IMG/VR virus record: IMGVR_UViG_3300047548_000345
Location: 1-59,795 of that record
Length of the DNA stretch: 59,795 nt
Source: a virus
Lineage: Duplodnaviria > Caudoviricetes
Reading direction: 5' to 3' (one strand)
In this document: one piece after another, positions 5,396-59,110 of the stretch
How positions within the stretch are numbered: position 1 is the stretch's first letter
Layout of the letters: each line of letters opens with the position of its first letter
The notes under the pieces: model-generated
Databases searched by the model: none
Told to the model about the DNA's origin: nothing
Seen by the model: only the letters and a program-made list of their open reading frames with translations
Translations under genes and position numbers: made by a program

Positions 5396-5487
5396 TGGCG
5401 GAGGGTGTGGGATTCGAACCCACGGTGAAGATTTCTCCCCACGCTCATTTAGCAAACGAGTGCTTTAAGCCTCTCAGCCAACCCTCC
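5396..5487 (-). tRNA. tRNA-Ser(GCT)
   Basis: Cloverleaf, long variable arm, loop TTGCTAA, encoded CCA. Confidence 0.95.
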
Positions 5488-5961
5488 TTAAGCTGCTAGA
5501 ATACCTTTTAATCTGTCGGCTGCATATGATGCTGCGAAGGCGTCTGGTTTGACCATTGGGACGACATTGCAGGTGCCTCTGATGTATCCGATGGCTTGCT
5601 GCACAACGCAAGAAGACCCGTGAACAATATCAGGATTAATATCAAGATGAACTTCACAGTGACGATTTCCGATAGCGTCGGCAAGGTCGAGATACATTTG
5701 TGCAGCACGGTAAACCTCGTTCATTAGCCTTAGGGCTGGGCGATCATGACGGTTATCGTAGTCGCGCTCTGTAGAAACATCACCAAAAACTTTGCAACCT
5801 TTGTTACCGTCATAGTGAACAACGATTGCAACAGTATAACTGGCACACCACTTATCTTCTTTGTCACGGTATCTCTCAGAGTCCGCACCAATATAAACAC
5901 AAGTGGTATCAGAAGTATTTCTAATAAAATCTCTCACTTCATCAATATTAAACTTACGCAT
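5488..5961 (-). CDS. RNase H-like YkuK family protein
   Basis: YIGADS, RLMNEV, EVHLDIN, KPDAFAASYAAD. Confidence 0.8.
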   Translation of the reverse strand: MRKFNIDEVRDFIRNTSDTTCVYIGADSERYRDKEDKWCASYTVAIVVHYDGNKGCKVFGDVSTERDYDNRHDRPALRLMNEVYRAAQMYLDLADAIGNRHCEVHLDINPDIVHGSSCVVQQAIGYIRGTCNVVPMVKPDAFAASYAADRLKGILAA

Positions 5962-5973
5962 ATTATATTCCAA

Positions 5974-6198
5974 TTATCGTAATGAAGACTCGAACTCCAT
6001 GATTGCTTCAACATCATTAGTATTTAATTCAGTAAACCGATCAGCCAGTTTTTGTAATGGCTCTCTTGTCTTTATATAGGGCTTTAGGAAGTGTGGTGGG
6101 TGATAAACAACGTAACCATCTTTATTGATGATTACGAGGTTACCGTTTCTCTTAGATACCGAATAAGTCTGAGTGACCTCAGCAACCTTTTCTTTTGG
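5974..6198 (-). CDS. Hypothetical protein, start uncertain
   Basis: Open frame fills the gap, but there is no clear start codon outside the upstream gene. Confidence 0.3.
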   Translation of the reverse strand, partial: PKEKVAEVTQTYSVSKRNGNLVIINKDGYVVYHPPHFLKPYIKTREPLQKLADRFTELNTNDVEAIMEFESSLR

Positions 6199-6199
6199 C

Positions 6200-6430
6200 T
6201 TAGTAAGGCCAGTTATAATATCCGTAAGGGCGATAGTATCTGTAATAAGTTGGTCCCACAACAACAGATGGCGGTGCAACCAAAACTGGGGGTCGTATAA
6301 TGACTGGACTTGGAACATAGACAGGTGCTGCGACTGGCGCGACCATGGGTTCCACATAGGTTGGACTAGGCACATAATAGGTGCATCCTGCTAGTGTTAG
6401 CGATAATAGTAATAAAGCAATTTTTCTCAT
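6200..6430 (-). CDS. Small Pro/Tyr-rich lipoprotein
   Basis: MRKIALLLLSLTLAGC lipobox. Confidence 0.6.
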   Translation of the reverse strand: MRKIALLLLSLTLAGCTYYVPSPTYVEPMVAPVAAPVYVPSPVIIRPPVLVAPPSVVVGPTYYRYYRPYGYYNWPY

Positions 6431-6448
6431 ACTATTATATAGGATATT

Positions 6449-6525
6449 TGGTGCCTCTGGAGGGATTCGAACCCACAACCCCTTGATTCTAAGTCAAGTA
6501 TCTCTACCAGTTGGACTACAGAGGC
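6449..6525 (-). tRNA. tRNA-Leu(TAG), short variable loop
   Basis: Loop CTTAGAA, A73, CCA. Confidence 0.85.
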
Positions 6526-6716
6526 CTATTAGCTGTTATGTTTCTTTGTGCCCTAATGTCTTTATTATTCCAAGACCAGCACTCACCAGTTTCATCTTGA
6601 AAGCAAACCCAAACCAAGTCTTGTTCAAAGCCATAGTCAATTAGAAAGTGAGCCTGTGCTTTGCCTTTTGGAGTGTTTACGGGTATAGGTGGATCGATAC
6701 GAACTATATCAGCCAT
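6516..6716 (-). CDS. Hypothetical phage protein
   Basis: ORF track; PPIPVNTPKG..AHFLIDYG..LVWV. Confidence 0.6.
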   Translation of the reverse strand: MADIVRIDPPIPVNTPKGKAQAHFLIDYGFEQDLVWVCFQDETGECWSWNNKDIRAQRNITANRPL

Positions 6717-6819
6717 AGAAGAAGTGTATGATAATGACGAAAATGATGCACAGTAATGGCATCCAACTTATCAGACCAATCGTAAAAAACCAATCTCTAA
6801 ATTCTTCTTTCGTCATCAT
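6709..6819 (-). CDS. Small membrane peptide
   Basis: Manual: MMTKEEFRDWFFTIGLISWMPLLCIIFVIIHFFYG. Confidence 0.4.
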   Translation of the reverse strand: MMTKEEFRDWFFTIGLISWMPLLCIIFVIIIHFFYG

Positions 6820-6828
6820 TATAATCCT

Positions 6829-6903
6829 TGGTGGGCGATGAGAGGTTCGAACTCCCGACCCGCTGCGTGTAAAGCAGCCGCTCTTCCACTGAGCTAATCG
6901 CCC
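6829..6903 (-). tRNA. tRNA-Val(TAC)
   Basis: Cloverleaf, loop TTTACAC, CCA. Confidence 0.95.
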
Positions 6904-6909
6904 TATTTC

Positions 6910-6985
6910 TGGTGGACTCGGACGGGATCGAACCGACGACCTATAGCTTGCAAAGCTACCGCTCTCCCAACTGAGCTACGAGCCC
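6910..6985 (-). tRNA. tRNA-Ala(TGC)
   Basis: Cloverleaf, G3-U70, CCA. Confidence 0.95.
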
Positions 6986-7351
6986 TTATGCTTGCCTTGT
7001 CAAATAGTTTGGACGAACATACTTCGCACCAAAATATTCTTTGACTAGAGCAATGACAACTTGATCATCGTATTCTTTGCAAGAGAAAACATCAAGATAC
7101 ATTGCATTACCACCCATGCCATCATCAGGTACAAAGTGGGCACAAATGTTAGAAGTTTCAATCAACTGGACTAGAGTATAACCAGCCTTGTTGCCAGAAC
7201 CGAAATTGATGATTTGCGGTTCGCCATATGCAACCATATCAATATCCTTCACAAGTCTTTTTGTGAAAGCGTAGATTGTATCATAAGATGTGATTGCATC
7301 GTGATTTAATTCAGCGCAATCTAAAAGGAGATGAAACCCCCAATAACTCAT
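6986..7351 (-). CDS. speD: S-adenosylmethionine decarboxylase proenzyme
   Basis: WGFHLLLD, QLIETSNICAHF, YLDVFSCK. Confidence 0.85.
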   Translation of the reverse strand: MSYWGFHLLLDCAELNHDAITSYDTIYAFTKRLVKDIDMVAYGEPQIINFGSGNKAGYTLVQLIETSNICAHFVPDDGMGGNAMYLDVFSCKEYDDQVVIALVKEYFGAKYVRPNYLTRQA

Positions 7352-7375
7352 TTCATGTAAACTCCTTGTTATAGA

Positions 7376-7446
7376 TGGAGCGGAGTCTGGAATTAAACCA
7401 GTCTGGCGAGTGGGAACCCGCTGTGCTATCGTTACACTAAATCCGC
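7376..7446 (-). pseudogene. Degenerate tRNA-Gly-like element
   Basis: GCGGA/TCCGC-T-CCA acceptor, 6-nt anticodon loop TTCCCA, T-loop TTTAATT, 4-bp T stem, no D-loop GG. Confidence 0.55.
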
Positions 7447-7453
7447 AAACTCG

Positions 7454-7618
7454 TTAGTCCTTGAGAAGTTTTGGTGCAGATTCATTGAGTTGAGTCTGTT
7501 GATACTCTGCAAGTTTCTTCTGATATTCTTCATTAGTCAGACTGTGCCAACCAATGCAAGAACCTGTTGGCGATCTACCGCAACCACATGAAGCGGCCTT
7601 CTTTTCTTGTTCAGTCAT
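7454..7618 (-). CDS. CDGSH-type iron-sulfur peptide
   Basis: Manual: MTEQEKKAASCGCGRSPTGSCIGWHSL..., AGGAG upstream. Confidence 0.65.
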   Translation of the reverse strand: MTEQEKKAASCGCGRSPTGSCIGWHSLTNEEYQKKLAEYQQTQLNESAPKLLKD

Positions 7619-7638
7619 CTATTTCACTCCTAAAAAAT

Positions 7639-7726
7639 TGGCGGAGAGGGTGAGATTCGAACTCACGGAACCTTGCGGTTCTCCAGTTTTCAAGACTGGC
7701 GGATTAAACCACTCTCCCACCTCTCC
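7639..7726 (-). tRNA. tRNA-Ser(TGA)
   Basis: Long variable arm, loop CTTGAAA, G73, CCA. Confidence 0.95.
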
Positions 7727-7732
7727 AAACTT

Positions 7733-7861
7733 TTATATCTCGTAAATCCTCGCACCAATATGTGCTAATGGATCTGCAAAGAGAACTGCTTTGTAATAAT
7801 CACTAAATGTTGTCCTGATTGGTCCAATAACAGGATCAGGTATGATAACAACCCATTTCAT
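7733..7861 (-). CDS. Small hypothetical protein
   Basis: MKWVVIIPDP..., GGAG upstream. Confidence 0.45.
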   Translation of the reverse strand: MKWVVIIPDPVIGPIRTTFSDYYKAVLFADPLAHIGARIYEI

Positions 7862-7876
7862 AATAATTCTCCAAAA

Positions 7877-7950
7877 TGGTGCCGGTAAGAAGAATCGAAC
7901 TCCTGTCAGAGGGTTACAAATCCACTGTAATGCCACTATACTATACCGGC
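7877..7950 (-). tRNA. tRNA-Thr(TGT)
   Basis: GCCG/CGGC-A-CCA, loop TTTGTAA; two mismatches in anticodon stem. Confidence 0.8.
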
Positions 7951-7956
7951 GAAACT

Positions 7957-8349
7957 TTAGTAACTTTTACCTTCTCGGTATCTCAAACGTCGGCTATGTC
8001 TACCATTACCAACATTCTTTGCTTTATATGTATCTGTCTGTGAATGGCAGTTTGGACACAGAAGGCATACATTATCTAAACTATTATCGCTAGAGTTTCC
8101 ATTTTTATGCTCTAACTCTAGAACAATAGGTTTGTTGTTGTAACTGTCTATACCACACTCTTCACAAAAGTAACCATTAGTCTCAATTAGATACCGTTTC
8201 ATAGTCTTAGAAGAAGCGGTATTCGTCTTAACTTTAGTAAGCATCTGGTGTTCATGCTGGCACTTATTAGAACAATACTTACCAGCAGTATTTGAGCGTC
8301 TGCAAAAGATTCCGCAGTTTAGACAGTTATATTCTAAAACAATAGGCAT
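7957..8349 (-). mobile_element. HNH homing endonuclease
   Basis: CEECG...LELEHKNGNSSDNSLDNVCLLCPNCH. Confidence 0.85.
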
Positions 8350-8350
8350 C

Positions 8351-8377
8351 GGTCTACTCCTTGGTAGACCTATTTAG
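8351..8377 (-). promoter_or_regulatory. Late promoter plus RBS-sequestering hairpin
   Basis: CTAAATA then GGTCTAC-CAAGGA-GTAGACC covering AGGAG. Confidence 0.75.
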
Positions 8378-8395
8378 TAAACTTCGATGCTCTAC

Positions 8396-8851
8396 TCAAA
8401 ACTTAATTTTGTTTTTCTTCTTGTATTCTATATAGCGTTCATATAAACCTAATTCTCGACCGAACGCATCTATTTCCCAAGGTTTGTCAAAATAGTGCGT
8501 CTTACGACCGACAACTTTACCTTGCCACTTATCTATGCCACCTTTATAGAGATATTTCAACTCACCTTTTGCATACTGCTTTACATGAACCATTTCATGT
8601 GCTAGTGTAATCAATAATTTGCGCTTTGGCAAGTCTTTTCTTACAGAGATTAGAAATTCTTTTGGTCTGTGATTATCATCTAAAAATTCGATGAAGCCAT
8701 GATATGATCCTGTGTTTCCACAGTTAATAGAAACTACCAAATTTTTTAATAGTCTCTTACTCATCAAAAGGCTGCCATAAAATTTTGCAGCACAATAAAT
8801 TTCTTTTTTTGTTATTTTTTCATTCTTACTACCTGTTACATTGACTTTCAT
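8396..8851 (-). CDS. HExxH metallopeptidase-like protein
   Basis: TLAHEMVHVKQY...PWEIDA. Confidence 0.75.
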   Translation of the reverse strand: MKVNVTGSKNEKITKKEIYCAAKFYGSLLMSKRLLKNLVVSINCGNTGSYHGFIEFLDDNHRPKEFLISVRKDLPKRKLLITLAHEMVHVKQYAKGELKYLYKGGIDKWQGKVVGRKTHYFDKPWEIDAFGRELGLYERYIEYKKKNKIKF

Positions 8852-8864
8852 AATGAACCTCAAG

Positions 8865-8970
8865 GGTGAAGAAAGAAGTGAGGCACTAACCGTGGTGCCT
8901 CGCGGGTCTATTTATGGCGACCAACCCATATTATCACTCCGACCAGGGTAAGTTTTACTTGATTCCAGCA
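8865..8970 (-). ncRNA. Unassigned structured RNA candidate
   Basis: GGGTT/GACCC and GAGGCAC/GTGCCTC stems in an intergenic gap. Confidence 0.4.
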
Positions 8971-8974
8971 AGAT

Positions 8975-9050
8975 TGGCTCCCCGACTAGGACTCGAACCT
9001 AGGACCGAACGATTAACAGTCGTTTGCTCTACCAACTGAGCTATCGGGAA
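8975..9050 (-). tRNA. tRNA-Asn(GTT)
   Basis: Canonical cloverleaf, CCA. Confidence 0.95.
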
Positions 9051-9057
9051 AAATTCA

Positions 9058-9582
9058 TCAGAAGCGGTAATTCAAGCCGATTGTGATTACATTCTGATGA
9101 TTATTTACGTTATAATCTGCAACGTAACGATAGCGAAGATCGGTTTCGATATTGCGAGTGATCGAGTAGCGAACACCAGCACCTACGTTCCAGATTGCTT
9201 CGTTGTTGGTTGACCAGCGATAGCCGGTGCCAACGAGAGCATAAGGAGTGAAGTTACCAATTGGATACTGACCAATTGCATTGGCTACGAGAGAGTTGGA
9301 ATGACGAGCATTGTCGCCGTTCCAGCCATACTCATAGACGCCTTCGACACGGGCATACTTGAAAGGCTGCCAGCCAGCAACAGCACCGATACGGGCATCA
9401 CCAGACCATGATGAAAAATCGGTTGCAACGCCGCCAACAAATGCACCAGCATAGAACTGAGGTTCTAATGCAACGCGATCTGGGATTGGCGGAAGCGGAG
9501 GTGTGCGCTTAGGAAGATCAGCAGCTTGAACAGCGGTCGCAGCAAAAAGGCCAAGAGCAGCCAACTTAATTGTCTTAATCAT
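9058..9582 (-). CDS. Omp25/RopB-like 8-stranded outer-membrane beta-barrel
   Basis: Signal peptide, AADLP, PYALVGTG, GAGVRY, C-terminal GLNYRF. Confidence 0.85.
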   Translation of the reverse strand: MIKTIKLAALGLFAATAVQAADLPKRTPPLPPIPDRVALEPQFYAGAFVGGVATDFSSWSGDARIGAVAGWQPFKYARVEGVYEYGWNGDNARHSNSLVANAIGQYPIGNFTPYALVGTGYRWSTNNEAIWNVGAGVRYSITRNIETDLRYRYVADYNVNNHQNVITIGLNYRF

Positions 9583-9983
9583 TCTTTATTCTCCTTTTGT
9601 TTCTTGAAGTCACTGTGATCATAGCAAGTGCGGCGATAACCGTTTTCGGTGGGAAAGCCACAGCCAGCATTATCAAAGCAACCAGGTTCGTCACACATAT
9701 TTAGAACGCTTTTTAGAACGTCCAACTTATGTTCTCTTACTATAGCCATTATATCATTTATTCGCTCAATGTCAAACTCATTCGATATTTCCATGCCACC
9801 TGCTTCGAATAGTGGCACATATGCATCAAGATCAAATCCTAGCCGATCATAGATTAGATAACGGTAAGAACCACCTTCTTTAGCATGTTCTACTATGTTC
9901 TTGAATACCCAAGCCGTGACGGCTAGTTTGGTATCATAATCACAATTCTCGACCAGATTGTCTGGTTGGTTTTCCGTCATCAT
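9579..9983 (-). CDS. Hypothetical phage protein
   Basis: GGSYRYLIYDRLGF; C-terminal Cys/His cluster. Confidence 0.6.
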   Translation of the reverse strand: MMTENQPDNLVENCDYDTKLAVTAWVFKNIVEHAKEGGSYRYLIYDRLGFDLDAYVPLFEAGGMEISNEFDIERINDIMAIVREHKLDVLKSVLNMCDEPGCFDNAGCGFPTENGYRRTCYDHSDFKKQKENKE

Positions 9984-10332
9984 ATAATCTTTCTGCTTCA
10001 ACTTTACATATTCCGCTAGAAAGGCATCCTAACTGCCTTGCTACTCCACGAGAAAGGTCGATATGTCGTCCTTTGATGAATGGTCCCCTATCATTAACTC
10101 TTACTATAACAGATTTGTCGCCATGTGTCAAGCGTAATTTTGTATGAAAAGGAAGTGTCTTGTGTGCTACTGTCATTCCGTCAGGATTAAATTTTTCGCC
10201 GTTCGCTGTTCTAGTTCCGTGCATATACCACGAAGCTACCATAACCTCTTTCTTACCTGCACCTGCATCCGCAATGGTATTGCAGGCCGCAAGCAATAGT
10301 GTTGCCGCGGCAACGGTGAAAATCTTAAACAT
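9940..10332 (-). CDS. RlpA-like lytic transglycosylase lipoprotein (DPBB)
   Basis: LLLAAC lipobox, ASWY, TANGE, AHKTLPF, VRVNDRGPF, IDLS. Confidence 0.9.
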   Translation of the reverse strand: MFKIFTVAAATLLLAACNTIADAGAGKKEVMVASWYMHGTRTANGEKFNPDGMTVAHKTLPFHTKLRLTHGDKSVIVRVNDRGPFIKGRHIDLSRGVARQLGCLSSGICKVEAERLYDDGKPTRQSGREL

Positions 10333-10458
10333 ATTAGTATCCTTTCTTTGTGGGCTTCGCGCAGCCCAGATGCAACTCCATAAAAGCATCGGTTGAAGAT
10401 ATCCAGCCTGAATGGCTGGATTGAGAAATAATGTTTATTATTTAGGTTGGGTGGAGGA

Positions 10459-10911
10459 CTACTTTTTGTAGAGGTCTTTTATTTGAAACTGATACAACAT
10501 CAGGTCGCCAGTCTCGTCATCGGGTGATTGTTCTTTTGACTTTCTTTTTCCTGCAATTGCTTTACCTTCTGATACAGCTTTCTTTGCATCTTGTGTTGCT
10601 TTGGAATCTTTCTGTGTCCAAGGTATCATGACTGTGTAAGGTGTATCTTTATCTTTTTCAATGATCCAGAGAAAGATTACCTTTTGCGGAATCTCTACAC
10701 TGTGTAAGAAAAAGTAATCCGCAGGTAGAGTGTTCTTAGGTTGCGCTTTGATAGCATCAACCATATAGATCAGTTTAAATAGTATAAACAAAACCACAGG
10801 AATGGCAACAAACAAATACTTTCTGTATTTTGGTGTTCTTGCCACTATAATAAGTGCGATTAAAGTAGGCACAGTTATGAGTATGAGTAACAGATAGTAA
10901 AGAGTAATCAT
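10459..10911 (-). CDS. Two-TM membrane protein
   Basis: Hydrophobic N-terminal helices; coupled to upstream gene. Confidence 0.6.
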   Translation of the reverse strand: MITLYYLLLILITVPTLIALIIVARTPKYRKYLFVAIPVVLFILFKLIYMVDAIKAQPKNTLPADYFFLHSVEIPQKVIFLWIIEKDKDTPYTVMIPWTQKDSKATQDAKKAVSEGKAIAGKRKSKEQSPDDETGDLMLYQFQIKDLYKK

Positions 10912-11495
10912 CTTACACCCATCAAGAACGGATATTGAGTTTTTGAATCAAAGAAATTAATCTCACCTTCGGCTTTCATGAAAAAGCGAACAAGAGTGAT
11001 CTCTTGCCCTTGGCTTGAAAAGATAACCTGACCACGATCTACAATCTTATTATTGTCATAGACGGCAATGATTGCCCATTGAACAATAGGAATAGGACCT
11101 TCATCACGCTTACGATACCAGTGTGCGGCTACAGTATACCAGCCTTCTTGAAATGCTCTAATTGCAATTATTTCTTCATTGATCGGTGTGAAATGCAACA
11201 TTTGTGCTGTGTCATCAGGACCTAGATCGTCGCGTTCTAGTGCAATGTTACTAGACTGACGCATAGGGAAACCAATTGCTCTCTCACCATATTGAATCCA
11301 TAAATCAACATCATGATTTGATCCATCTTGCCACTTCATGACAATTAGATACTTCGCTTCTTTCTTTGTATTGGATTCTTGTCTAGGTGGGTTAAGCATG
11401 ATAATGCTGAGAATGAACAGCGCGATCAAAGCAATGATCAAGTTAAATGCAAAATCTATGAATGATAATGTTGTGCCAAATCTAGTTCGGTTCAT
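10908..11495 (-). CDS. ExbD/MotB-like single-pass membrane protein
   Basis: FIDFAFN TM with Asp; DVDLW, LERDDLG. Confidence 0.55.
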   Translation of the reverse strand: MNRTRFGTTLSFIDFAFNLIIALIALFILSIIMLNPPRQESNTKKEAKYLIVMKWQDGSNHDVDLWIQYGERAIGFPMRQSSNIALERDDLGPDDTAQMLHFTPINEEIIAIRAFQEGWYTVAAHWYRKRDEGPIPIVQWAIIAVYDNNKIVDRGQVIFSSQGQEITLVRFFMKAEGEINFFDSKTQYPFLMGVR

Positions 11496-11925
11496 TTGTC
11501 TTTTCTAGATTGACGAGCAAGGCTTTGATGATCAGACCTGATGAGAGACCAACGAGAGTTGTCCAAATTGCAGTGCCGACACCTAAAGCAATTGAAGTGA
11601 TGATCGTCTTGATATTTTCCGCACTAATAACGCCTGAGAAAGCACCACTAAACATAATGATGAAACCGACGAGAGTGCCGACCATACCTAGGCCTAGCTG
11701 TGTTTCAGAAACGAACCATAATGGATCAATATTTGATAGGTCTTTTTTATAGGTGTAATAACCTATGATCAATATTGTAACAGCGTGAACCAATAGAATG
11801 AAAAGAGAGATGTATGTTGGATCCGCCGCGATGATCATATCAAATACACCGAAGTGATAACCAACAACAGCACCAAAAACTTGTAGGCAGAAGAACAACC
11901 ACCAGATTAACATAGCTTGTGTCAT
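11482..11925 (-). CDS. MotA/TolQ/ExbB proton-channel family protein
   Basis: LGMVGTLVGFI, GVGTAIWTTLVGL. Confidence 0.8.
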   Translation of the reverse strand: MTQAMLIWWLFFCLQVFGAVVGYHFGVFDMIIAADPTYISLFILLVHAVTILIIGYYTYKKDLSNIDPLWFVSETQLGLGMVGTLVGFIIMFSGAFSGVISAENIKTIITSIALGVGTAIWTTLVGLSSGLIIKALLVNLEKTNEPN

Positions 11926-12263
11926 GCTCTGACTCCTACCAACTTACGCATGATTTCTTCAAATGCTTTATCGTTCATTTGAAGGTTTTCTTGCATTGTG
12001 GCTAGGCAGGCTACACTTTGCTCTGGTGCTTTAGCGGTTGAATCAAATACAATAACAGCCATCGCCTTCTTCTCGCCTTGAATGAGAACAAGTGTGGCTG
12101 TCTTACCATTGTTTGTCTTGAATACTGGAACGAAACCTACGCCTGTGATCATCTCCATCATCTGAGGTAATGGGAGACACAAAGTATCATTTTTAGCCGG
12201 AGTTTCTTGTGAGAAAGCCAGGGTTGGTAATAAACAGGCGGATGCGATTAACAAATTACGCAT
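11922..12263 (-). CDS. Secreted hypothetical protein
   Basis: N-terminal signal peptide. Confidence 0.55.
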   Translation of the reverse strand: MRNLLIASACLLPTLAFSQETPAKNDTLCLPLPQMMEMITGVGFVPVFKTNNGKTATLVLIQGEKKAMAVIVFDSTAKAPEQSVACLATMQENLQMNDKAFEEIMRKLVGVRA

Positions 12264-12315
12264 GGCTATGCCTTTCTTGAATACCTATTATTTAGGCTAC
12301 AAGTGGCTTTAACGA

Positions 12316-12537
12316 TTAGGTATCTGTCTCTCTACGAAATTCTACCGACTCGCTGGTCAAGATCATTTCTTGCTGGCCGTGATAGCCATCCGATAGAACA
12401 TCTGTCTCCAATAAGACATTATAGAGACCATCTTCACCATAATCAACCTTGCTTATGATCTTTATAATTACAACATAAGGTGGTTCTGAGACTTTTTCTA
12501 TTAGTTTTTCGTGCATAAGCACATGGCATGTGCCCAT
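12316..12537 (-). CDS. Hypothetical protein
   Basis: ORF track, AGGAG upstream. Confidence 0.5.
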   Translation of the reverse strand: MGTCHVLMHEKLIEKVSEPPYVVIIKIISKVDYGEDGLYNVLLETDVLSDGYHGQQEMILTSESVEFRRETDT

Positions 12538-12551
12538 TATGCTCTCCTAAT

Positions 12552-12627
12552 TGGTACCGTCTGTCGGATTCGAACCAACTCTACAAGTGCCACAAACTTG
12601 TGTGCTGACCTACAACACTAAGACGGC
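12552..12627 (-). tRNA. tRNA-His(GTG), alphaproteobacterial type
   Basis: Loop TTGTGGC; G1-U72, A73, T at -1. Confidence 0.9.
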
Positions 12628-12631
12628 AAAC

Positions 12632-12706
12632 TGGCGAAGGTCCTAGGAATCGAACCTAGTTCTCAAGGTTTTGGAGACCTGCGGATTACCATCTTCCCCG
12701 ACCGAC
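12632..12706 (-). tRNA. tRNA-Trp(CCA)
   Basis: Loop CTCCAAA, G73; two acceptor-stem mismatches. Confidence 0.8.
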
Positions 12707-12726
12707 ACAAGACTATTTATATCGTT

Positions 12727-12800
12727 TGGCTGGGGCACATGGATTCGAACCACGATTGACGGAATCAAAATCCGCTGTCCTACCTTTAGACGATGCCCCA
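12727..12800 (-). tRNA. tRNA-Gln(TTG)
   Basis: U1-A72, loop TTTTGAT, CCA. Confidence 0.95.
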
Positions 12801-12816
12801 ATGTGGGTTGGGTAAT

Positions 12817-12896
<80 letters not shown>

Positions 12897-12897
12897 T

Positions 12898-12973
12898 TGG
12901 TTGCAGAGGCAGGATTTGCACCTGCGATTCCTTGGTTATGAGCCAAGTGAGATAACTACTTCTCTACTCTGCA
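12898..12973 (-). tRNA. tRNA-Met(CAT), initiator-like
   Basis: Loop CTCATAA, A11-U24, atypical T-loop TGCAAAT. Confidence 0.8.
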
Positions 12974-12979
12974 ATAATT

Positions 12980-13336
12980 ATAACAGAAGAACACTAGGGG
13001 GTTTCCCATCCTGCATTGGTGGTACCCGCCACCTTTGCCTGTTGTCACGATCTCGGTGGATCGGTATGATAGCCTAGTGTTCGTCAATTACAATGAAGGT
13101 TACAACCCAGTCACTTACCTACATCGGCATACGTTACAGGTCTACCTACAATCCCTCTAACTCAAATTGGCTCGGGCTATCCGCGGCGAATCCGCCTAAG
13201 GATTTAATTCTTCTCATAACCCCCGAGCAGCCATGAGTATATCTGGTCTAAAGCGTCAGCCGAAGCGACAGTCACAAGCACAGGACCTGAACCGTGCAAG
13301 TCAAGGCAGTTTCTCACATGAACTCTGCCAAAACTC
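12980..13336 (-). ncRNA. Large structured non-coding region (one or two RNAs)
   Basis: No credible ORF; 10-bp GAACACTAGG/CCTAGTGTTC closing stem, C(UUCG)G hairpin, pseudoknot pairing. Confidence 0.55.
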
Positions 13337-13531
13337 TTAGATGTTGAAGAAACGTCTATAATTTTTCTTATCGTATTCTATGTAGCCTTCAGGTGCTTCA
13401 TAACGCTCATGATTAATATCGACCAAGAAAGGTGTCATATTTCCATCTGCGTGTTTGAGGTGACAAATTACCAAGTCATGCTTTTCTACTTTATCAAAGA
13501 TTTGCTCATTTGTCAAGTCGAGCTTCTTCAT
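13337..13531 (-). CDS. Hypothetical protein
   Basis: ORF track. Confidence 0.5.
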   Translation of the reverse strand: MKKLDLTNEQIFDKVEKHDLVICHLKHADGNMTPFLVDINHERYEAPEGYIEYDKKNYRRFFNI

Positions 13532-13549
13532 GCGTATTACCACCGTGAA

Positions 13550-13756
13550 TTATCCTTTCAGAAAAAACTTTTCAGTCCTTTCTTCTAAGAGTGTTCTCTG
13601 ATTGTCAGCCTTGAAAAGCGACACAGTATTTAGCACAGCAACAGTCTTACGATTATTATATGCATCCACGGCTGCATCATAATTCTCAAAGGTTTCACGA
13701 TAAACGGACATCTTGCTATCGTTGTCCAATTCTTCAACGATCCATTGCTGTTTCAT
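13550..13756 (-). CDS. Hypothetical protein
   Basis: ORF track, GAGGTG RBS, own promoter. Confidence 0.6.
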   Translation of the reverse strand: MKQQWIVEELDNDSKMSVYRETFENYDAAVDAYNNRKTVAVLNTVSLFKADNQRTLLEERTEKFFLKG

Positions 13757-13784
13757 TTTCTCACCTCAGTTTCGATTGTCCTGT

Positions 13785-13813
13785 ATAATAGCACAATCAC
13801 TTAGGAATGTCAA
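13785..13813 (-). promoter_or_regulatory. sigma70-type promoter
   Basis: TTGACA-17-TATTAT. Confidence 0.7.
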
Positions 13814-13814
13814 G

Positions 13815-13889
13815 TGGTGGGCGAGGTAGGACTCGAACCTACACTCAGACCGTTATGAGCGGCCGGCTTCACCTTTAAGCTACTCGCCC
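13815..13889 (-). tRNA. tRNA-Ile2(CAT) (lysidine type) or Met
   Basis: GGGC/GCCC-A-CCA acceptor typical of Ile2; loop CTCATAA. Confidence 0.85.
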
Positions 13890-13897
13890 GATATTCT

Positions 13898-14827
13898 TTA
13901 GTTGATTACTTTCCAGCCTTCGATATTCTTAGCCTTTTCTTCACTCGAAAGAGGAACATAATCTAACTCATCTGCCATTGTGTCACCTTTTTCATAAGCC
14001 CACTTGAAAAAGTCAAGAGCCAACTTAGCCTGTTCTTTGTTAGTAGGATTCTTATGCATCAGAATGTATGTCGGTGCAGCAATAGGCCAGTCTTTCTGAA
14101 AACTTTCTTTGCCTGCTACAATCACCTTGTCAACAACTTTCAATGAAGTATAAGCGATTTGGTTCTGTTTGGCAAATGCATACTCAACATAGCCGATAGA
14201 AAACTTTGTTTGCTTGACATTTCCTGCTACGCCTTCGTTACCTTTTGCACCGATGCCAACTGGCCATTCAATAGCCGCAGCAGCACCAATCTTAGTATTC
14301 CATTCTTGACTTACAGAGGACAAATACTTGGTAAACAAGTAGGTGGTTCCGCTGCCGTCACTTCGTCTTACTACAAGAATAGTTTGATTAGGCAGATTTA
14401 CATTAGGGTTCAAATCTGTGATACGCTTATCATTCCACTTTGTAATCTTACCAAGGTAAATGTCTGCAACAACATCACCAGTCAAAACTAATTGATTAGA
14501 CTTGATACCATCAAGATTGAAAACAACCACGTTGCCACCGATCACCATTGGAAACTGGTGTAAGCCATCTTTATCCAACTGAGTCTGTGTTAAAGGCATA
14601 TCTGTTGCGCCGAATGTAACGGTCTTAGCCTGAATTTGCTTAATGCCTGCACCACTTCCTACAGATTGATAATTGACTGTGATGCCAGTTTCTTTACGAT
14701 AGGCATCTGCCCACTTTGCATAAACTGGATATGGAAATGTCGCGCCTGCTCCTGTTACAGTTTTATCCTGTGCGTGTGCTAGTGTAGTCGATAATGCTAA
14801 TACTAAACCAATAATTGTCTTTTTCAT
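13898..14827 (-). CDS. pstS: Phosphate-binding protein PstS
   Basis: GAGATFPYP, YQSVGSGAG, FGATD, RRSDGSGTT, GAKGNEGV, IGYVE. Confidence 0.95.
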   Translation of the reverse strand: MKKTIIGLVLALSTTLAHAQDKTVTGAGATFPYPVYAKWADAYRKETGITVNYQSVGSGAGIKQIQAKTVTFGATDMPLTQTQLDKDGLHQFPMVIGGNVVVFNLDGIKSNQLVLTGDVVADIYLGKITKWNDKRITDLNPNVNLPNQTILVVRRSDGSGTTYLFTKYLSSVSQEWNTKIGAAAAIEWPVGIGAKGNEGVAGNVKQTKFSIGYVEYAFAKQNQIAYTSLKVVDKVIVAGKESFQKDWPIAAPTYILMHKNPTNKEQAKLALDFFKWAYEKGDTMADELDYVPLSSEEKAKNIEGWKVIN

Positions 14828-14843
14828 TTTTCACCTTGTGATT

Positions 14844-14920
14844 TGGTGCCCGTGGTCAGACTCGAACTGACACTGTAGAGATTTTAAGTCTCCCTTCTCT
14901 GCCGATTGGAATACACGGGC
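14844..14920 (-). tRNA. tRNA-Leu(TAA), short variable loop
   Basis: Loop CTTAAAA, A73, CCA. Confidence 0.85.
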
Positions 14921-54940: not shown

Positions 54941-56656
54941 TTACGACTGTAACATAGAAAAATTCTTAATTTTTTGAAACCTATAGACCTTTTCAAACTT
55001 ATCTAGCATCGTATCTGTCTTGTGTGAGATAACAAAGGTATTTGTATCGCCTAGCATGTCCCACATAATCTTGAGGAACTCATCGGTACCATTATTATCT
55101 AGCGAACCATCCAGAACCTCGTCAAGCACAAGAAGATTGGTATTGATTGAGTTACGCATCTTGGCAATCGAACGCCAAGTGAATAGCAGTGCAAGATCGA
55201 TACGGGTCTTCTCACCTTCTGAGAAGTTTTGATAGGAAAACTCATCACGATAACGGCTTTTGATTGTTTCTTCAAACTGTTCATTGATATTGAAGTTGAC
55301 AAAGAAACCCATACGAGCAAGATATTTGTTAATGAGTTTGTTGATGATAGGAAGATATTGCTTGATAATCTTTGTCTTGATACCGCCGTCTTTCAAAAGG
55401 CTTAGCGCGGTTTCAATGAAAAGCCTATCTTCTAAAATCTTAGCCTTCTCATCGGACAGTTCTTCAATCTCTTTTGTTACCGTAGCTAGATCATTCTGGT
55501 TATCAATCAGGATTCTATCAGCATTTTGAATTTGTTCAATTTCATCCGTCAGATCATTGACAATAGAAATAGATGTATTGATAAGAGACTTCTTAGTTGC
55601 AATCTCAGTATTGATCTTATTGTTTTCTAATACGATCTTATCCATCTCTTCGATTGATAGAATACAAGCATCAATTTGCTTAGAGATTTCTCCAAGCCCG
55701 TCTTCAAGTTCTTTAACCTTAGTTTCTGTTTCACATACGATGTTAGACTTAAAACCACTATCAATAGCTTGCCGGCAAGTTGGGCACTCATCATGATCGT
55801 GATAGAAGGCAATGTCTTTCTTATACCGAGATAGATTAGTTTCTATTTTGGTCTGTAGCGCGATATACTTTTTGTGACGATCTTTGCTTTTTGCTTTTTC
55901 TGCGGCTTGTTCGACCAAGTCACTAGACCTTTTTTCAAGGGTTTCGATTTCGGCTTTGAGCGTATGAATTTTGTTCTCATGATCATCCTTTTGAGATATC
56001 AAAGCATCAATCTTATCGCTGTTAGTCTTTTTCAGACTTGCAATGTTGCGTTCAATAAAAGTTTTAAGTTCTTCTTTAGAAGTGAGAGACAGACGGTTTC
56101 GTTCAAGTGCGCTTTTGTTCTCCACCATCTTCTGCTTAACAAGGACATTCATTGTCGAAAAGATTTGAATGTCAAGCAGGTCTTCAATCACACTACGACG
56201 GTCAGCAGGTGATAACTGCATGAAAGGAACAAATGAGGCTGAACCAAGAATGACAATCTGAGTAAAGGACTTGTAGTTCATCTTGAGGATAAACTTCTCA
56301 AGGTGTTCTTGATAGTCCTTCGACGCAGAGTCTTGGTTCAGCAGAACATCATCACAATAGATTTCAAAGACAGCAGGCTTGATACCACGAATGATCTTGT
56401 ATTCTTTACCATTGGTCGAAAACTCAATCTGCACTTCACAATTCTTACCGTTGACCGAGTTGACGAGCAACGGCTTGTTGATCTTACGAAACGCTTTACC
56501 GAACAGAGCAAAGCAAAGCGCATCAAGGATCGTGGACTTACCAGCACCGTTCTCACCGATGATGAGGGCATTGGCAGTCTCGTTCAACTTGATTTCGGTA
56601 AAGGCATTACCAGTAGAGAGTAGATTCTTCCAACGAATAGTCTTGAATACGATCAT
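54941..56656 (-). CDS. 46: Recombination endonuclease ATPase subunit gp46 (Rad50-like)
   Basis: GENGAGKST, CPTC hook, FSEGEK, LDEVLDGSLD, ISH. Confidence 0.97.
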   Translation of the reverse strand: MIVFKTIRWKNLLSTGNAFTEIKLNETANALIIGENGAGKSTILDALCFALFGKAFRKINKPLLVNSVNGKNCEVQIEFSTNGKEYKIIRGIKPAVFEIYCDDVLLNQDSASKDYQEHLEKFILKMNYKSFTQIVILGSASFVPFMQLSPADRRSVIEDLLDIQIFSTMNVLVKQKMVENKSALERNRLSLTSKEELKTFIERNIASLKKTNSDKIDALISQKDDHENKIHTLKAEIETLEKRSSDLVEQAAEKAKSKDRHKKYIALQTKIETNLSRYKKDIAFYHDHDECPTCRQAIDSGFKSNIVCETETKVKELEDGLGEISKQIDACILSIEEMDKIVLENNKINTEIATKKSLINTSISIVNDLTDEIEQIQNADRILIDNQNDLATVTKEIEELSDEKAKILEDRLFIETALSLLKDGGIKTKIIKQYLPIINKLINKYLARMGFFVNFNINEQFEETIKSRYRDEFSYQNFSEGEKTRIDLALLFTWRSIAKMRNSINTNLLVLDEVLDGSLDNNGTDEFLKIMWDMLGDTNTFVISHKTDTMLDKFEKVYRFQKIKNFSMLQS

Positions 56657-56817
56657 TCACTTTTCCCAAGTGCAATGTGAATCTTTTCGAAACCTTCACG
56701 CAGTTCTTTAAATACATCAGAAACAGTTTGTATGTAATCTGAAACTGACTCAACGCTCTTTTTAGCCAATTCCAATTGGTCTAACAATTCAGGAACAGTT
56801 TTGAGTTCTTCGGTCAT
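56653..56817 (-). CDS. Small hypothetical protein
   Basis: Manual coupled [15 protein letters not shown]... Confidence 0.5.
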   Translation of the reverse strand: MTEELKTVPELLDQLELAKKSVESVSDYIQTVSDVFKELREGFEKIHIALGKSE

Positions 56818-57080
56818 TCTTTAATTCCAAAATGTTTTCGCAAATCTTCATTGATATCATCTGCTATATTCGAATTATGCACAATATCATTTTCAACAAC
56901 AAAAGTGCCCCACTTGGAAACTCTATCCATGCACTCTTTAGCAATCAGTTTGGCAAAGTCCATCAAGTCTTTTGTATCTGCGGCATCGGTAACATAATAG
57001 TGTCGATCTGTTCCGATTTCTTGATAGTTCAGAACACCGGCTTCAAACCCCAGTTCTATAAGTCTATCTTCGGTCATCAT
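56814..57080 (-). CDS. Hypothetical protein
   Basis: FAKLIAKEC...HFGIKE. Confidence 0.6.
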
Positions 57081-58157
57081 TCGGCAAACTCCACTTGTAA
57101 CGCTTCCATGTAGATATCATTCATGAAAGTCTTCATTCTATCAGAATCTACCGGTAATGTCAACCCGTCCAGGTACTTCCTTAGAATAGTCGGTGTATCT
57201 TCTGCTTGATCGATTGCCGTATCTTCTTCATTGTCTTTGAAGGATGAGATATCTTCAATGATGGAAATGTCTAGAGGTCCTGCTTTGTAGAGTTTATCAA
57301 ACATCATATCGAATGCATAAGGATTAGTTTTATTGACACAGACTAACTTGACATAAGAACCGGCATACTTACTAAAGTCAGACTTGTTGATACGTTCGAT
57401 GATATCTGTATGCTTCACATCATCATATGCAACCATCTTGAACATGCCGTGAGGATTACGATGAAAGATCAGTTCTCGCGTTTGCGTATCAAAGACATGA
57501 AAGCCTCGCGGATCATTGTAATCACTCCATGTAAACTCAGCGAAAGCGCCAAGATAATGGATATTACCAGTAGAAGACTTGTGATGATAATGCCCAGTGA
57601 ATACGCAGTCGTAGCGATCAAAGAGTTTAGAATCCATACCATGGTCCGAGACACTGCCTCGAAACATCTCGAAACCATTGAGTTCGAGGTGCCCCATGAG
57701 GACTTCGGCTGGACTTCTCCTGATTGCTTCCATAGACTCATCGTAATTAGACTCCGTTATCCAAGGTAGAAGTTGAATGAGAGTTCCATCAACATCTAGC
57801 AAATGTGGTTTATCATAGACAGAAATGTTTTGATAGCGACCTTCAACAAGTTCGCGCAAGGCATTTACTTCATGCGTATCACGCCAATAGATATCGTGGT
57901 TACCGGCGATGATATGTGTTTCGATACCTTTAGATTCGACAATATCTAAGAACACTTCTCTACAGACTTTGGCCGTTCGAAAGTTAACATACTTGCGACG
58001 ATCATACAAGTCACCTAGATGAATGATGTGCTTGATATTCTGGTCTTCTATGATCTTGAATATGTCTGCGAAGGACTTTGCAAAGTATTCATAGAATGTT
58101 GGATTGTCATTCCGAATCCCGAAAGTGGGTATCAGTTATAAGGGCAACTTTTGCCAT
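57077..58157 (-). CDS. 47: Recombination endonuclease subunit gp47 (Mre11-like), needs a +1 frameshift near 58122
   Basis: Frame 0 [12 protein letters not shown] then stop; +1 frame FGIRND...[22 protein letters not shown]. Confidence 0.9.
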
Positions 58158-58879
58158 CACTGATTCTCCTTATCAATAAGAGGTTTATAAACATAATCTC
58201 GGGGCACAGGCCCATCTTTACCAATTCTATCTTCTGGATCAAATCCTTTTGCATAGAATCTATTATACAAGAATTTAGATACTCCTGTCAAGTCTTGCAG
58301 TTCTTTCCAGCCTAGATAAACCTTACCTTTGTATTCTATTCGATTGGATCTAACTAGTTTTGCGGCTTGGCCACCTAGTGTGGCATTTTTTCGATTATTC
58401 TCCAGAAACTCTTCTCTGTTTTCTTGCTGCCATTGTTTGATTTTTTGAGACATTTTCTGTCGTCGTTCGTCGTTGTTTTCCCAATTTGCTGTGACCAACT
58501 CACGAATTTTTTGGTTCCAACCAGGTATCCTTTTGCTATGATGATTCTCTTTCAGAAAGCGAATATGTCGGCGGCGATACCACTCATAGTCTCTGGAGTT
58601 GAAGTAATCGACAGAACTATAGCACATTTTATGTAGCGCCCAATTCATTTTGACGGCATCTTCTTGATTATAGACCATCTTGGTCAATAGAAGGTGTGCT
58701 AAAAAATGTTCTCTAGGAAGAAGATTGACCAGATTGTCCGGATCATTACTTCCTCCCAGAGATTTAGGTATGATATGATGGGTTTCACAATAAACATCTT
58801 CTTTTAAGAGTTTATCATCTTTACGCTTATCAATCAGTTGGTAGTAGATTCGCGTATATTTGTTGTCTTTGAATATCAT
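58157..58879 (-). mobile_element. HNH homing endonuclease
   Basis: ETHHIIPKSLGGSNDPDNLVNLLPREHFLAHLLL; late promoter at 58914. Confidence 0.9.
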
Positions 58880-58924
58880 TGTTAACTCCAAACGTCTTTG
58901 GTATCGACAATGATATTTAGTATT

Positions 58925-59110
58925 TCAGTGATTTCTAGGAGCAGGCTTCTCTACACTTTTCTTGTAATCTGATATCTCATCCTCACCAACCAGACCAACC
59001 GCCTTCATGCGTTCCAGCACCTTCTCAGCATCTTTACTGTCATAAGGTGCTGGAATAGCGTTTCGCTTGCAAAACAATTCAATCAGTTGGTCTAGGTCGG
59101 TATCGATCAT
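58925..59110 (-). CDS. Hypothetical protein
   Basis: ORF track. Confidence 0.5.
   Translation of the reverse strand: MIDTDLDQLIELFCKRNAIPAPYDSKDAEKVLERMKAVGLVGEDEISDYKKSVEKPAPRNH

Follow-up and report, generated by a model that had tools for sequence, protein, structure and literature searches.

In phage T4, an insert that accompanies mobA and gene 60 takes the form of a 50-nucleotide (nt) translational bypass and protects against nicking (Bonocora et al., 2011, as presented by Atkins et al., 2016; bioRxiv 10.1101/2022.08.31.505936). Here we describe a locus of related design in the IMG/VR viral contig IMGVR_UViG_3300047548_000345 (59.8 kb; "the window" hereafter, meaning the whole stretch of DNA that was analyzed), which represents about 36% of the genome of a T4-like phage. 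The gene of gp47, the SbcD/Mre11-type nuclease of this phage, is written in two reading frames with one extra pyrimidine between them, and it directly follows a free-standing HNH homing-endonuclease gene. The overall explanation that is developed below, in which a gp47 gene written in two frames, a +1 slip of the ribosome and the edge of a homing cassette are three parts of one arrangement, is in our judgment likely.

Several other described systems share one or another feature with this locus. Schwartz and Curran are reportedly the authors to be credited, for work dating from 1997, with +1 frameshift-prone UUU_Y sites in bacteria, where Y is a pyrimidine. As reviewed, such bacterial sites comprise error-level or reporter events together with the debated case of YopN-TyeA (Atkins et al., 2016, NAR 44:7007), for which UUU-UGG was proposed as the site and in which the mutation of UUU-UGG left the hybrid in Y. 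pseudotuberculosis. The original prediction for the window, which was made from its letters alone, invoked UUU_CGN as a known +1 shift site from the PA-X protein of influenza A, and this frameshift is indeed described in the same review, at UCC_UUU_CGU (Firth et al., 2012, cited after Atkins et al., 2016). In the mitochondria of glass sponges, corrective +1 frameshifting takes place at UGG or CGG codons that are made by a T, rarely a C, inserted directly 5′ of GGA (Atkins et al., 2016). A "fractured" environmental SbcD-like gene of phage type, which is split by a Vsr-like homing endonuclease, has also been reported (Dassa et al., 2009, PMC2677866). The word frameshift is absent from the text of that paper, and a search of the literature, supplements not covered, found no report that connects homing endonucleases with a frameshift in gp47 or SbcD.

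The proposed explanation has three steps. In the first, 12 frame-0 codons with nuclease motif I, one extra pyrimidine and then a body of 347 codons would together make up a gene that comparison with its relatives marks as functional. In the second, tRNA-Phe on a P-site UUU, with the rare codon CGG (UGG in some relatives) in the A site, would re-pair one base forward on UUC or UUU; the glycine codon GGN would be read next, and unshifted ribosomes would terminate 2 to 11 codons further on. Many ribosomes would be brought to the site by a strong Shine-Dalgarno (SD) sequence and by a stop-start overlap with the upstream gene. In the third, the extra base, the SD and the first gp47 codons would be the 3′ edge of a mobile cassette, the body of which is a MobE-like HNH gene and which would have been inserted between the upstream gene and gp47. 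The features concerned are as follows, where aa stands for amino acids.

58122..58157, minus strand: gp47 frame-0 segment of 12 codons, with nuclease motif I (D-x-H), aligned to residues 1-12 of P0002, a relative that is in frame
58118..58124, minus strand: shift site TTT C GGG, the extra pyrimidine being the minus-strand C at 58121
57077..58120, minus strand: gp47 body in the +1 frame, 347 codons and a stop, an SbcD/Mre11-type metallophosphoesterase
58107..58109, minus strand: frame-0 stop TGA, four codons past the shift site, which gives a 16-residue peptide for non-shifted ribosomes
58136..58138, minus strand: TAA of the body (+1) frame, ahead of the site, which bars body-frame reading of the N-terminus
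58166..58171, minus strand: Shine-Dalgarno AAGGAG of gp47, within the final HNH codons (K E N Q stop)
58157..58879, minus strand: free-standing HNH homing-endonuclease gene, 240 aa from a conserved ATG, with an alternative TTG start at 58891

The reverse complement of 58157..58107 reads ATG GCA AAA GTT GCC CTT ATA ACT GAT ACC CAC TTT CGG GAT TCG GAA TGA, and the stop TGA of the HNH gene (58159-58157) and the ATG of gp47 (58157-58155) overlap by one base, the shared A. The original prediction was exact in these respects, both in placing motif I in frame 0 and the remainder in the +1 frame (58157..58107, with the body at 58120..57077) and in the one-base overlap of the two genes. At the shift site the A site has CGG in the zero frame, and GGG is read in the +1 frame. 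Because the body frame has its TAA upstream (58138-58136) and contains no ATG, GTG or TTG between this TAA and the TTG of GDL in GDLYDRRKY (58009), motif I (DTH) can come from frame 0 only, as had also been claimed. The sequence supports the view that a complete gp47 requires the reading frame to change by +1 at UUU_CGG. The recoded product (P0121) was printed with the one-step code CGGG=G; a TTTC=F code over-shifted at later TTTC words. It is 80% identical to P0002 over residues 1-359, is gapless at the site with F12 opposite W12, and matches PHROG 100 "SbcD-like subunit" over residues 1-356 (E 9.5e-100), and the body matches Pfam Metallophos (E 6e-10). A sequence search of the PDB with the recoded gp47 gave no match at E ≤0.001. 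The recoded protein has the marks of an SbcD/Mre11 nuclease, namely a metallophosphoesterase fold with motif I (D-x-H) and motif II (G-D-x-x-D) and a gp46 (SbcC/Rad50-like) gene downstream.

The same site recurs in many other phages. A pattern made up of D-T-H codons, any four bases and G-I-R-N-D codons was found in 9 viral contigs, namely at 8 starts of gp47, each with TTTC or TTTT, and in 1 chance match, while a second pattern, T-D-x-H, any four bases and G-[V/A]-R-N-D, was found in 69 contigs, 67 of them gp47 starts (57 TTTC, 10 TTTT) and 2 of them chance matches. With both patterns pooled, the four free bases are TTTC or TTTT in 75/75 gp47 matches. A search with the SD-start junction returned 42 contigs with 13 gp47 starts, 13/13 of which are frameshifted at the same place. 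A further search was seeded with the HNH gene, using a profile from the alignment of three HNH proteins and keeping 80/361 relatives; it gave 7 loci with gp47 downstream, 5 frameshifted (L080, L082, L085, L086, and L116) and 2, which represent one sequence, in frame (L083/L084). A weak opposite-strand gp47 match in L101 was left out of this count. Pooled and including the window, the frameshifted loci number 85 and lie in 82 distinct contigs with 61 distinct 260-nt contexts, plus L085; the contigs come from about 76 datasets according to a hand count of contig names, and CAY-TTT-Y-GGN is common to all 85 loci. The in-frame version of the second pattern is present in at least 120 loci, and in-frame alleles are therefore at least as common as frameshifted ones.

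The window itself has no near-identical relative among the viral contigs searched, because an exact-pattern search for its own site in them gave no match. Protein searches of viral and metagenome contigs with gp47 yielded only relatives of ≤75% identity, and all of those that cover the N-terminus are in frame. The runs X3 and X4, from other studies, gave only diverged fragments; one X4 contig (270 nt, 39 differences, 8 gaps) spans the site and has no indel at 58116-58127 among the indels listed, and nothing was concluded from it. Sequences of cultured phages were also considered and set aside. In Cyanophage Syn10 (L079, HQ634191.1), the unannotated gp47 is frame-broken in mid-gene (∼1470-2490), unrelated to the site, and this frame change could be a sequencing error or a real lesion. 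In Prochlorococcus phage Syn1 (L229, GU071105.1, 1244-1481), gp47 is in frame and its short annotation (about 80 codons too short) reflects a missed TTG start, behind which the conserved N-terminus with D-Q-H is found in frame.

The frameshifted genes are under selection that changes frame at the site. All of the frameshifted bodies that were examined are open (13/13); 11 reach a stop after 340-352 codons, and the locus ends before any stop in L082 (303 codons) and L085 (328 codons). The ratio of nonsynonymous to synonymous substitution rates (dN/dS) is 0.065 (L053/L065, dS 0.37) and 0.079 (L036/L039) in frameshifted pairs and 0.041 in an in-frame pair, with values of about 0.2 for frameshifted pairs in which dS is saturated. 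In 57 distinct alleles, the mean entropy by frame-0 codon position upstream of the site is 0.89/0.17/1.44, based on 12 nt unconstrained by any pattern, and downstream (nt 16-120) a signature of 1.17/0.95/1.64 is found in the +1 frame only. Because the codon-position entropy switches there, selection follows frame 0 as far as the Phe codon and the +1 frame beyond it, and the variability of third positions shifts by +1 precisely at the site. The 12 frame-0 codons retain D-x-H-F, with synonymous changes at third positions only. Judged by these patterns of substitution, the gp47 gene of the window is functional though written in two frames, and the frameshift arrangement looks like a conserved recoding device rather than an error.

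The bases at the site indicate how the frame could be restored. In-frame alleles have at the Phe position TTT (71), TTC (28), TGG (16) or another codon (5) among the matches listed (n=120), whereas frameshifted alleles always have TTT followed by C or T, and TTC is never seen. The re-pairing of tRNA-Phe from UUU to UUC that the original prediction put forward fits these data, since TTT with C or T in 75/75 free-base matches is what re-pairing on UUC or UUU requires. Most frameshifted alleles have CGG as the zero-frame A-site codon, with UGG in its place in the TTT-T-GG alleles. Among Arg codons, CGG is the rarest, with 26/16562 codons in the open reading frames (ORFs) of the window (1.6 per 1000) and 1.9 per 1000 in 61 frameshifted bodies; UGG, at 8.6-14 per 1000, is not rare. 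Within the frameshifted bodies, TTT_CGG in frame was observed 0 times vs 1.78 expected, and UUU_Y is depleted relative to UUC_Y (371/914 vs 223/438, p 4e-4). ARAGORN finds 14 tRNA genes in the window, clustered at 5396-14920 on the minus strand (Ser ×2, Leu ×2, Val, Ala, Thr, Asn, His, Trp, Gln, Pro, and Met ×2). None of these is for Arg, Phe or Gly and none has an unusual anticodon, in keeping with the earlier statement that a CCG-anticodon tRNA is lacking in the window. We consider it quite likely that the whole gp47 is made by +1 ribosomal frameshifting through a slip of tRNA-Phe on UUU_Y.

The gene upstream of gp47 encodes a protein that matches Pfam PF01844 HNH (E 6.6e-6, residues 33-57) and PHROG 655 "homing endonuclease" (E 9e-40) and is about 30% identical to products of T4-like phage genes annotated as homing endonuclease or MobE. 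The H-H...N...H columns are invariant in the three-sequence HNH alignment; a search of viral contigs with the single HNH protein gave no confirmed locus, and the three-sequence profile was needed. The order of genes on the minus strand is 61-aa ORF, HNH gene, gp47, two small ORFs and gp46, the outer members being as follows.

58925..59110, minus strand: 61-aa ORF, which directly precedes gp47 in HNH-less relatives and is the upstream edge of the HNH insertion
54941..56656, minus strand: gp46 (SbcC/Rad50-like ATPase), the partner of gp47, with Pfam AAA_23 and SMC_N; in L002-L007 the gene that follows gp47 is 69% identical to it

By blastp the 61-aa ORF is 39% identical (E ∼1e-9) to ORFs that lie about 60 nt upstream of gp47 in L005, L015, L017, L019, and L026. 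Since these relatives have no HNH gene in the gap of about 60 nt between that ORF and their in-frame gp47, the HNH gene is an insertion. The cassette and the frameshift are associated. Among the matches listed, an HNH-family tblastn match was found ≤1.5 kb upstream of 50/76 frameshifted gp47 genes, counting those with ≥800 nt of upstream sequence, vs 0/115 in-frame ones (Fisher p 5e-27), and the extra base was thus found to co-occur with an upstream HNH gene across gene 47 homologs, as the original prediction would have it. The frameshifted loci form a series of HNH decay, 14 with a match of ≥180 aa, 41 with a partial match and 26 with nothing detectable, and it follows from the last group that the frameshift outlives the endonuclease. 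Many of the 41 partial matches are ORFs of 165-181 aa that retain the C-terminal part only and have no Pfam match. Some of the HNH-less loci keep the last 5-20 HNH codons fused to the SD (L035, the L036 group, and L037), and in others gp55 directly adjoins gp47.

Two further observations concern this endonuclease family. In a "DQHF" group, an ORF of 165-181 aa precedes many frameshifted gp47 genes (L162:4409-4939; L178, L181, L185, L187, L191, L205, and L228) and has the HNH C-terminal part (..IEYKG..GW..L...KHLYKKYY..G.DPE.RIG..GP..) behind a different N-terminus, with no HNH motif and no Pfam or PHROG match; it is either a decayed endonuclease or a repurposed DNA-binding remnant. In Sinorhizobium phage phiM12 (L078, 565-1218), a relative of the HNH gene that is annotated as mobE lies between gp55 and an intact gp47, on the opposite strand, and this family seems to have landed repeatedly between gp55 and gp47.

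The cassette has several properties of a free-standing homing endonuclease, among them an HNH motif, sporadic presence with empty sites and mosaic flanks. On a tree of 42 gp47 bodies, from which the codons of the site itself were left out, the frameshift state changes at least 7 times, with 4 changes forced by well-supported branches, and the window groups with five in-frame alleles (support of 97 in the Shimodaira-Hasegawa-like approximate likelihood ratio test, SH-aLRT). The first 36 nt of gp47 in the window are identical at 33/36 positions to those of L037 and L038 and at 23-25/36 to those of its own clade mates L002-L004, although the bodies of L037 and L038 are only about 55-65% nucleotide-identical to that of the window. 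Compared with L002, the body of the window is about 50-70% identical over approximately the first 100 codons and about 67-83% identical after them. In the same way, L036, which has no HNH gene, and L043, which has a full one, share 86/90 nt from −75 to +15 around the extra base and then 7/15, and the shared block ends between 0 and +45 in several other pairs too. Because pairwise identity drops just past the site, the extra base lies at the 3′ edge of the shared block. From the mosaic sequences and the scattered distribution on the gp47 tree, we infer that the cassette is mobile.

Elsewhere around the locus, the two small ORFs between gp47 and gp46 (54 and 88 aa; window 56653-57080) have no family match, and the gp47-gp46 interval of the relatives L002-L004 is only about 224 nt. 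The window also has same-strand ORF pairs that overlap by 40-100 nt in different frames, for example, 3328-4248/4178-4636, 19895-21016/20973-21320/21214-22089, 26115-26609/26546-27238, and 30112-31395/31328-31993, which may merely reflect the choice of the earliest start codon by the ORF lister.

A number of results count against the three-step explanation or temper it. The frameshifted loci were gathered with targeted patterns and their counts do not give prevalence, and two short blastn probes of the junction region, a weak search, found no phage with the site in a collection of cultured phages, matching only in-frame cyanophage or Melnitz-type starts. The Fisher test of the HNH association ignores shared descent. 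Not only are 26 frameshifted loci without a detectable HNH gene, but in L083/L084 an HNH gene (Pfam HNH at cut-off) is directly upstream of an in-frame gp47 that reads CAC GCA GGT, so the endonuclease can occur without the extra base and the extra base without the endonuclease. The original prediction had held that in-frame relatives with a homing endonuclease gene would speak against it, and they do so in the form of this one allele only, which has GCA for TTT, 5/7 of the HNH-seeded gp47 loci being frameshifted. The allele (L083:1501-2260 and L084) has a GTG start and Ala (GCA) in place of Phe and the extra base, and its sister group on the tree, L053/L065, is frameshifted. Over all pairs, moreover, the 24 nt upstream of the site are only slightly more conserved in frameshifted than in in-frame alleles (0.75 vs 0.68, at 45-60% body identity), and the mosaic signal therefore rests on particular pairs. 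With regard to the slip itself, TTT_TGG occurs in frame 6 times in ordinary ORFs of the window vs 6.2 expected and gp47 itself has an in-frame TTT_CGA at codon 59, from which it follows that UUU_Y by itself cannot shift ribosomes very efficiently. Folding of the 75 nt downstream revealed no RNA structure peculiar to the frameshifted alleles (mean z −0.52 vs −0.48 in-frame), and no stimulator was found beyond the site itself. The strong SD and the stop-start overlap may offset a modest shift rate.

What the extra base is for is the least certain part of the explanation. It interrupts the sequence that codes for motif I, and the idea that this is the sequence recognized by the endonuclease, so that the extra base would protect its carriers, was also put forward in the original prediction for the DTHFG-coding stretch; it is drawn by analogy with mobA and gene 60 and has in our estimate a chance slightly below even. 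A broader proposal, which we put forward only tentatively, is that the single base is a "recoding scar," a portable immunity device of widespread MobE-like homing cassettes, in which the endonuclease target is broken in the motif-I codons of gp47, the UUU_Y +1 slip mends the frame, and the scar would outlive the endonuclease since in-frame revertants are recut by circulating cassettes. The rival explanation that survives best accepts the +1 frameshifting and denies any relation to immunity, the extra base being either a mildly harmful scar that hitch-hikes with the cassette or a throttle that offsets the strong SD to keep the dose of gp47 low. A strong SD does accompany the frameshift (83/85 frameshifted loci vs 12/120 in-frame loci among the matches listed), the HNH-bearing allele L083/L084 does without the extra base, and the endonuclease is not needed for the frameshift to persist, as in the 26 HNH-less loci. 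Homing drive can also carry linked costly alleles. However, a harmful insertion of one base should easily revert in large phage populations once the endonuclease is lost, and instead the extra base is kept throughout the L035/L037/L038 clade, in which dS is saturated (>1.3). The insertion furthermore lies in the most conserved coding stretch of the gene, and highly conserved coding sequence is what homing endonucleases usually recognize. In the one parallel on record, that of mobA and gene 60, the insert does protect, as described in the sources cited above. We regard a scar or throttle without immunity as rather unlikely, though deserving of more weight than any other rival.

A second group of alternatives has the frame restored without slippage in the P site, by a tRNA that reads four bases with an enlarged anticodon loop, by out-of-frame binding of Gly-tRNA as in Ty3, or by loss of one U in transcription. 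In favor of such routes, no frameshift stimulator was found, a special tRNA could be encoded in the part of the genome outside the window, and the +1 shifts of glass-sponge mitochondria at UGG or CGG before GGA are mostly interpreted as Ty3-like in the review (Atkins et al., 2016). Yet the rule of TTT followed by a pyrimidine is not needed for out-of-frame A-site binding, and the frameshifted alleles follow it without exception where the in-frame alleles listed divide 71 to 28 between TTT and TTC. In addition, all 14 tRNAs of the window have ordinary anticodons, and the T runs are only 3 to 5 long. Runs of this length are too short for known transcriptional slippage. Restoration of the frame by any of these routes appears improbable, and the slip of tRNA-Phe on UUU_Y is the reading that we retain.

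It might also be supposed that gp47 is inactive, either as a pseudogene or as a truncated protein from an internal start that would lack motif I, and gene callers in fact give truncated products only, of 292 aa in the window (P0001) and of about 310 aa, from the Leu of GDL, in P0027, P0098, and P0112. This is very improbable in view of the intact bodies and the strong purifying selection on them, the retention of D-x-H-F in 12 frame-0 codons with only synonymous third-position changes, the stop just upstream in a body frame that has no conserved start, and the maintenance of the arrangement in 61 distinct contexts. The three database proteins are 72-79% identical to gp47 of the window, are 309-310 aa long and begin exactly at the Leu of GDL; they probably derive from further frameshifted alleles that gene callers have shortened.

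The reality of the extra base was checked against a Logan contig of 3784 nt and depth 10.2 from run X1, which is identical to the window over 56600-59098, with 0 differences and 0 gaps. The original prediction had named an assembly error as one way in which it could fail, and the TTTC is kept in this independent contig over 2.5 kb, at the contig level. The comparison is between contigs, which hide minor variants, and X1 may be the source sample of the window, so the X1 contig alone rules out only an artefact of the assembler; that the site is found again in many further contigs also excludes chance or error. Although the window is a metagenome-assembled contig of modest depth (∼10) and the comparison is one of contigs, a sequencing or assembly error is hardly conceivable, given the agreement of the X1 assembly, the presence of this pyrimidine at one and the same position in 82 distinct contigs (about 76 datasets by the hand count), the fact that TTTC is no homopolymer error, and the selection signatures at the site.

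With gp47 read as a functional gene that is probably completed by a +1 slip, several consequences follow. Obligatory +1 frameshifting is rare in bacteria and phages, and here an essential recombination nuclease appears to depend on such a shift in dozens of uncultured T4-like phages. The site, UUU-Y-GGN at 12 codons from the start, is minimal and easily testable, and research on recoding would gain a natural series of >60 sequence variants of a single site, just as research on homing endonucleases would gain a second and simpler cassette that brings its own recoding signal. The frameshifted gp47 genes are cut short or missed by gene callers, so they may be logged as truncated or broken when they probably are not. 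If the portable immunity device were real, it would be the second natural case, after T4 mobA and gene 60, of a selfish element that protects a host gene by recoding and the first in which a simple frameshift does this, and it would mean that in nature an essential phage gene commonly depends on an obligatory +1 frameshift.

Comparison with the described systems, as these are presented in the sources cited, places the gp47 locus near several of them. It shares with the UUU_Y sites of bacteria the tetranucleotide UUU plus C or U, on which tRNA-Phe can re-pair in the +1 frame, possibly aided by a slowly decoded next codon, but the gp47 site appears obligatory for an essential enzyme and is conserved across many lineages. 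Like the influenza PA-X site, it combines the +1 direction with UUU in the P site and, as the codon in the A site, a rare CGN for arginine. However, PA-X is an accessory protein made by a low-level shift in a eukaryotic host, whereas the shifted product of gp47 is the only useful one. The glass-sponge case resembles it in that one base inserted before a Gly codon creates a rare zero-frame UGG or CGG and the shift compensates an indel in a conserved gene, and differs in being mitochondrial, in having no link to a mobile endonuclease and in needing no preceding UUU. In the fractured gene of Dassa et al. (PMC2677866), a free-standing endonuclease likewise targets SbcD and its 3′ end overlaps the start of the downstream gene, but SbcD there consists of two separately translated halves and the endonuclease belongs to a different family.

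The closest likeness is to mobA and gene 60 (10.1101/2022.08.31.505936). The original prediction had presented the locus as an intron-free homing strategy; the association with the HNH gene and the requirement for recoding were both borne out, and the novelty was not, the bypass of T4 mobA and gene 60 being a precedent. In both systems, going by what the preprint and the review report, a free-standing endonuclease gene of the HNH family lies just upstream of an essential gene of DNA metabolism, the 3′ end of the element reaches a few codons into the conserved gene and bears a non-triplet insert that needs recoding, the recoding signal outlasts an endonuclease that is often degenerate, and the insertions are multiple and independent or scattered in their distribution. 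The two differ in that a single base and a UUU_Y +1 slip are found here in place of a 50-nt hop with matched take-off and landing codons, in that the target is gp47 (SbcD/Mre11) rather than a topoisomerase and the gp47 gene is not split, and in that protection, which is demonstrated for mobA, is for the gp47 cassette an expectation drawn by analogy. Hence, on the evidence of its sequence, the gp47 cassette appears to work like the mobA/gene 60 cassette without being a member of it.

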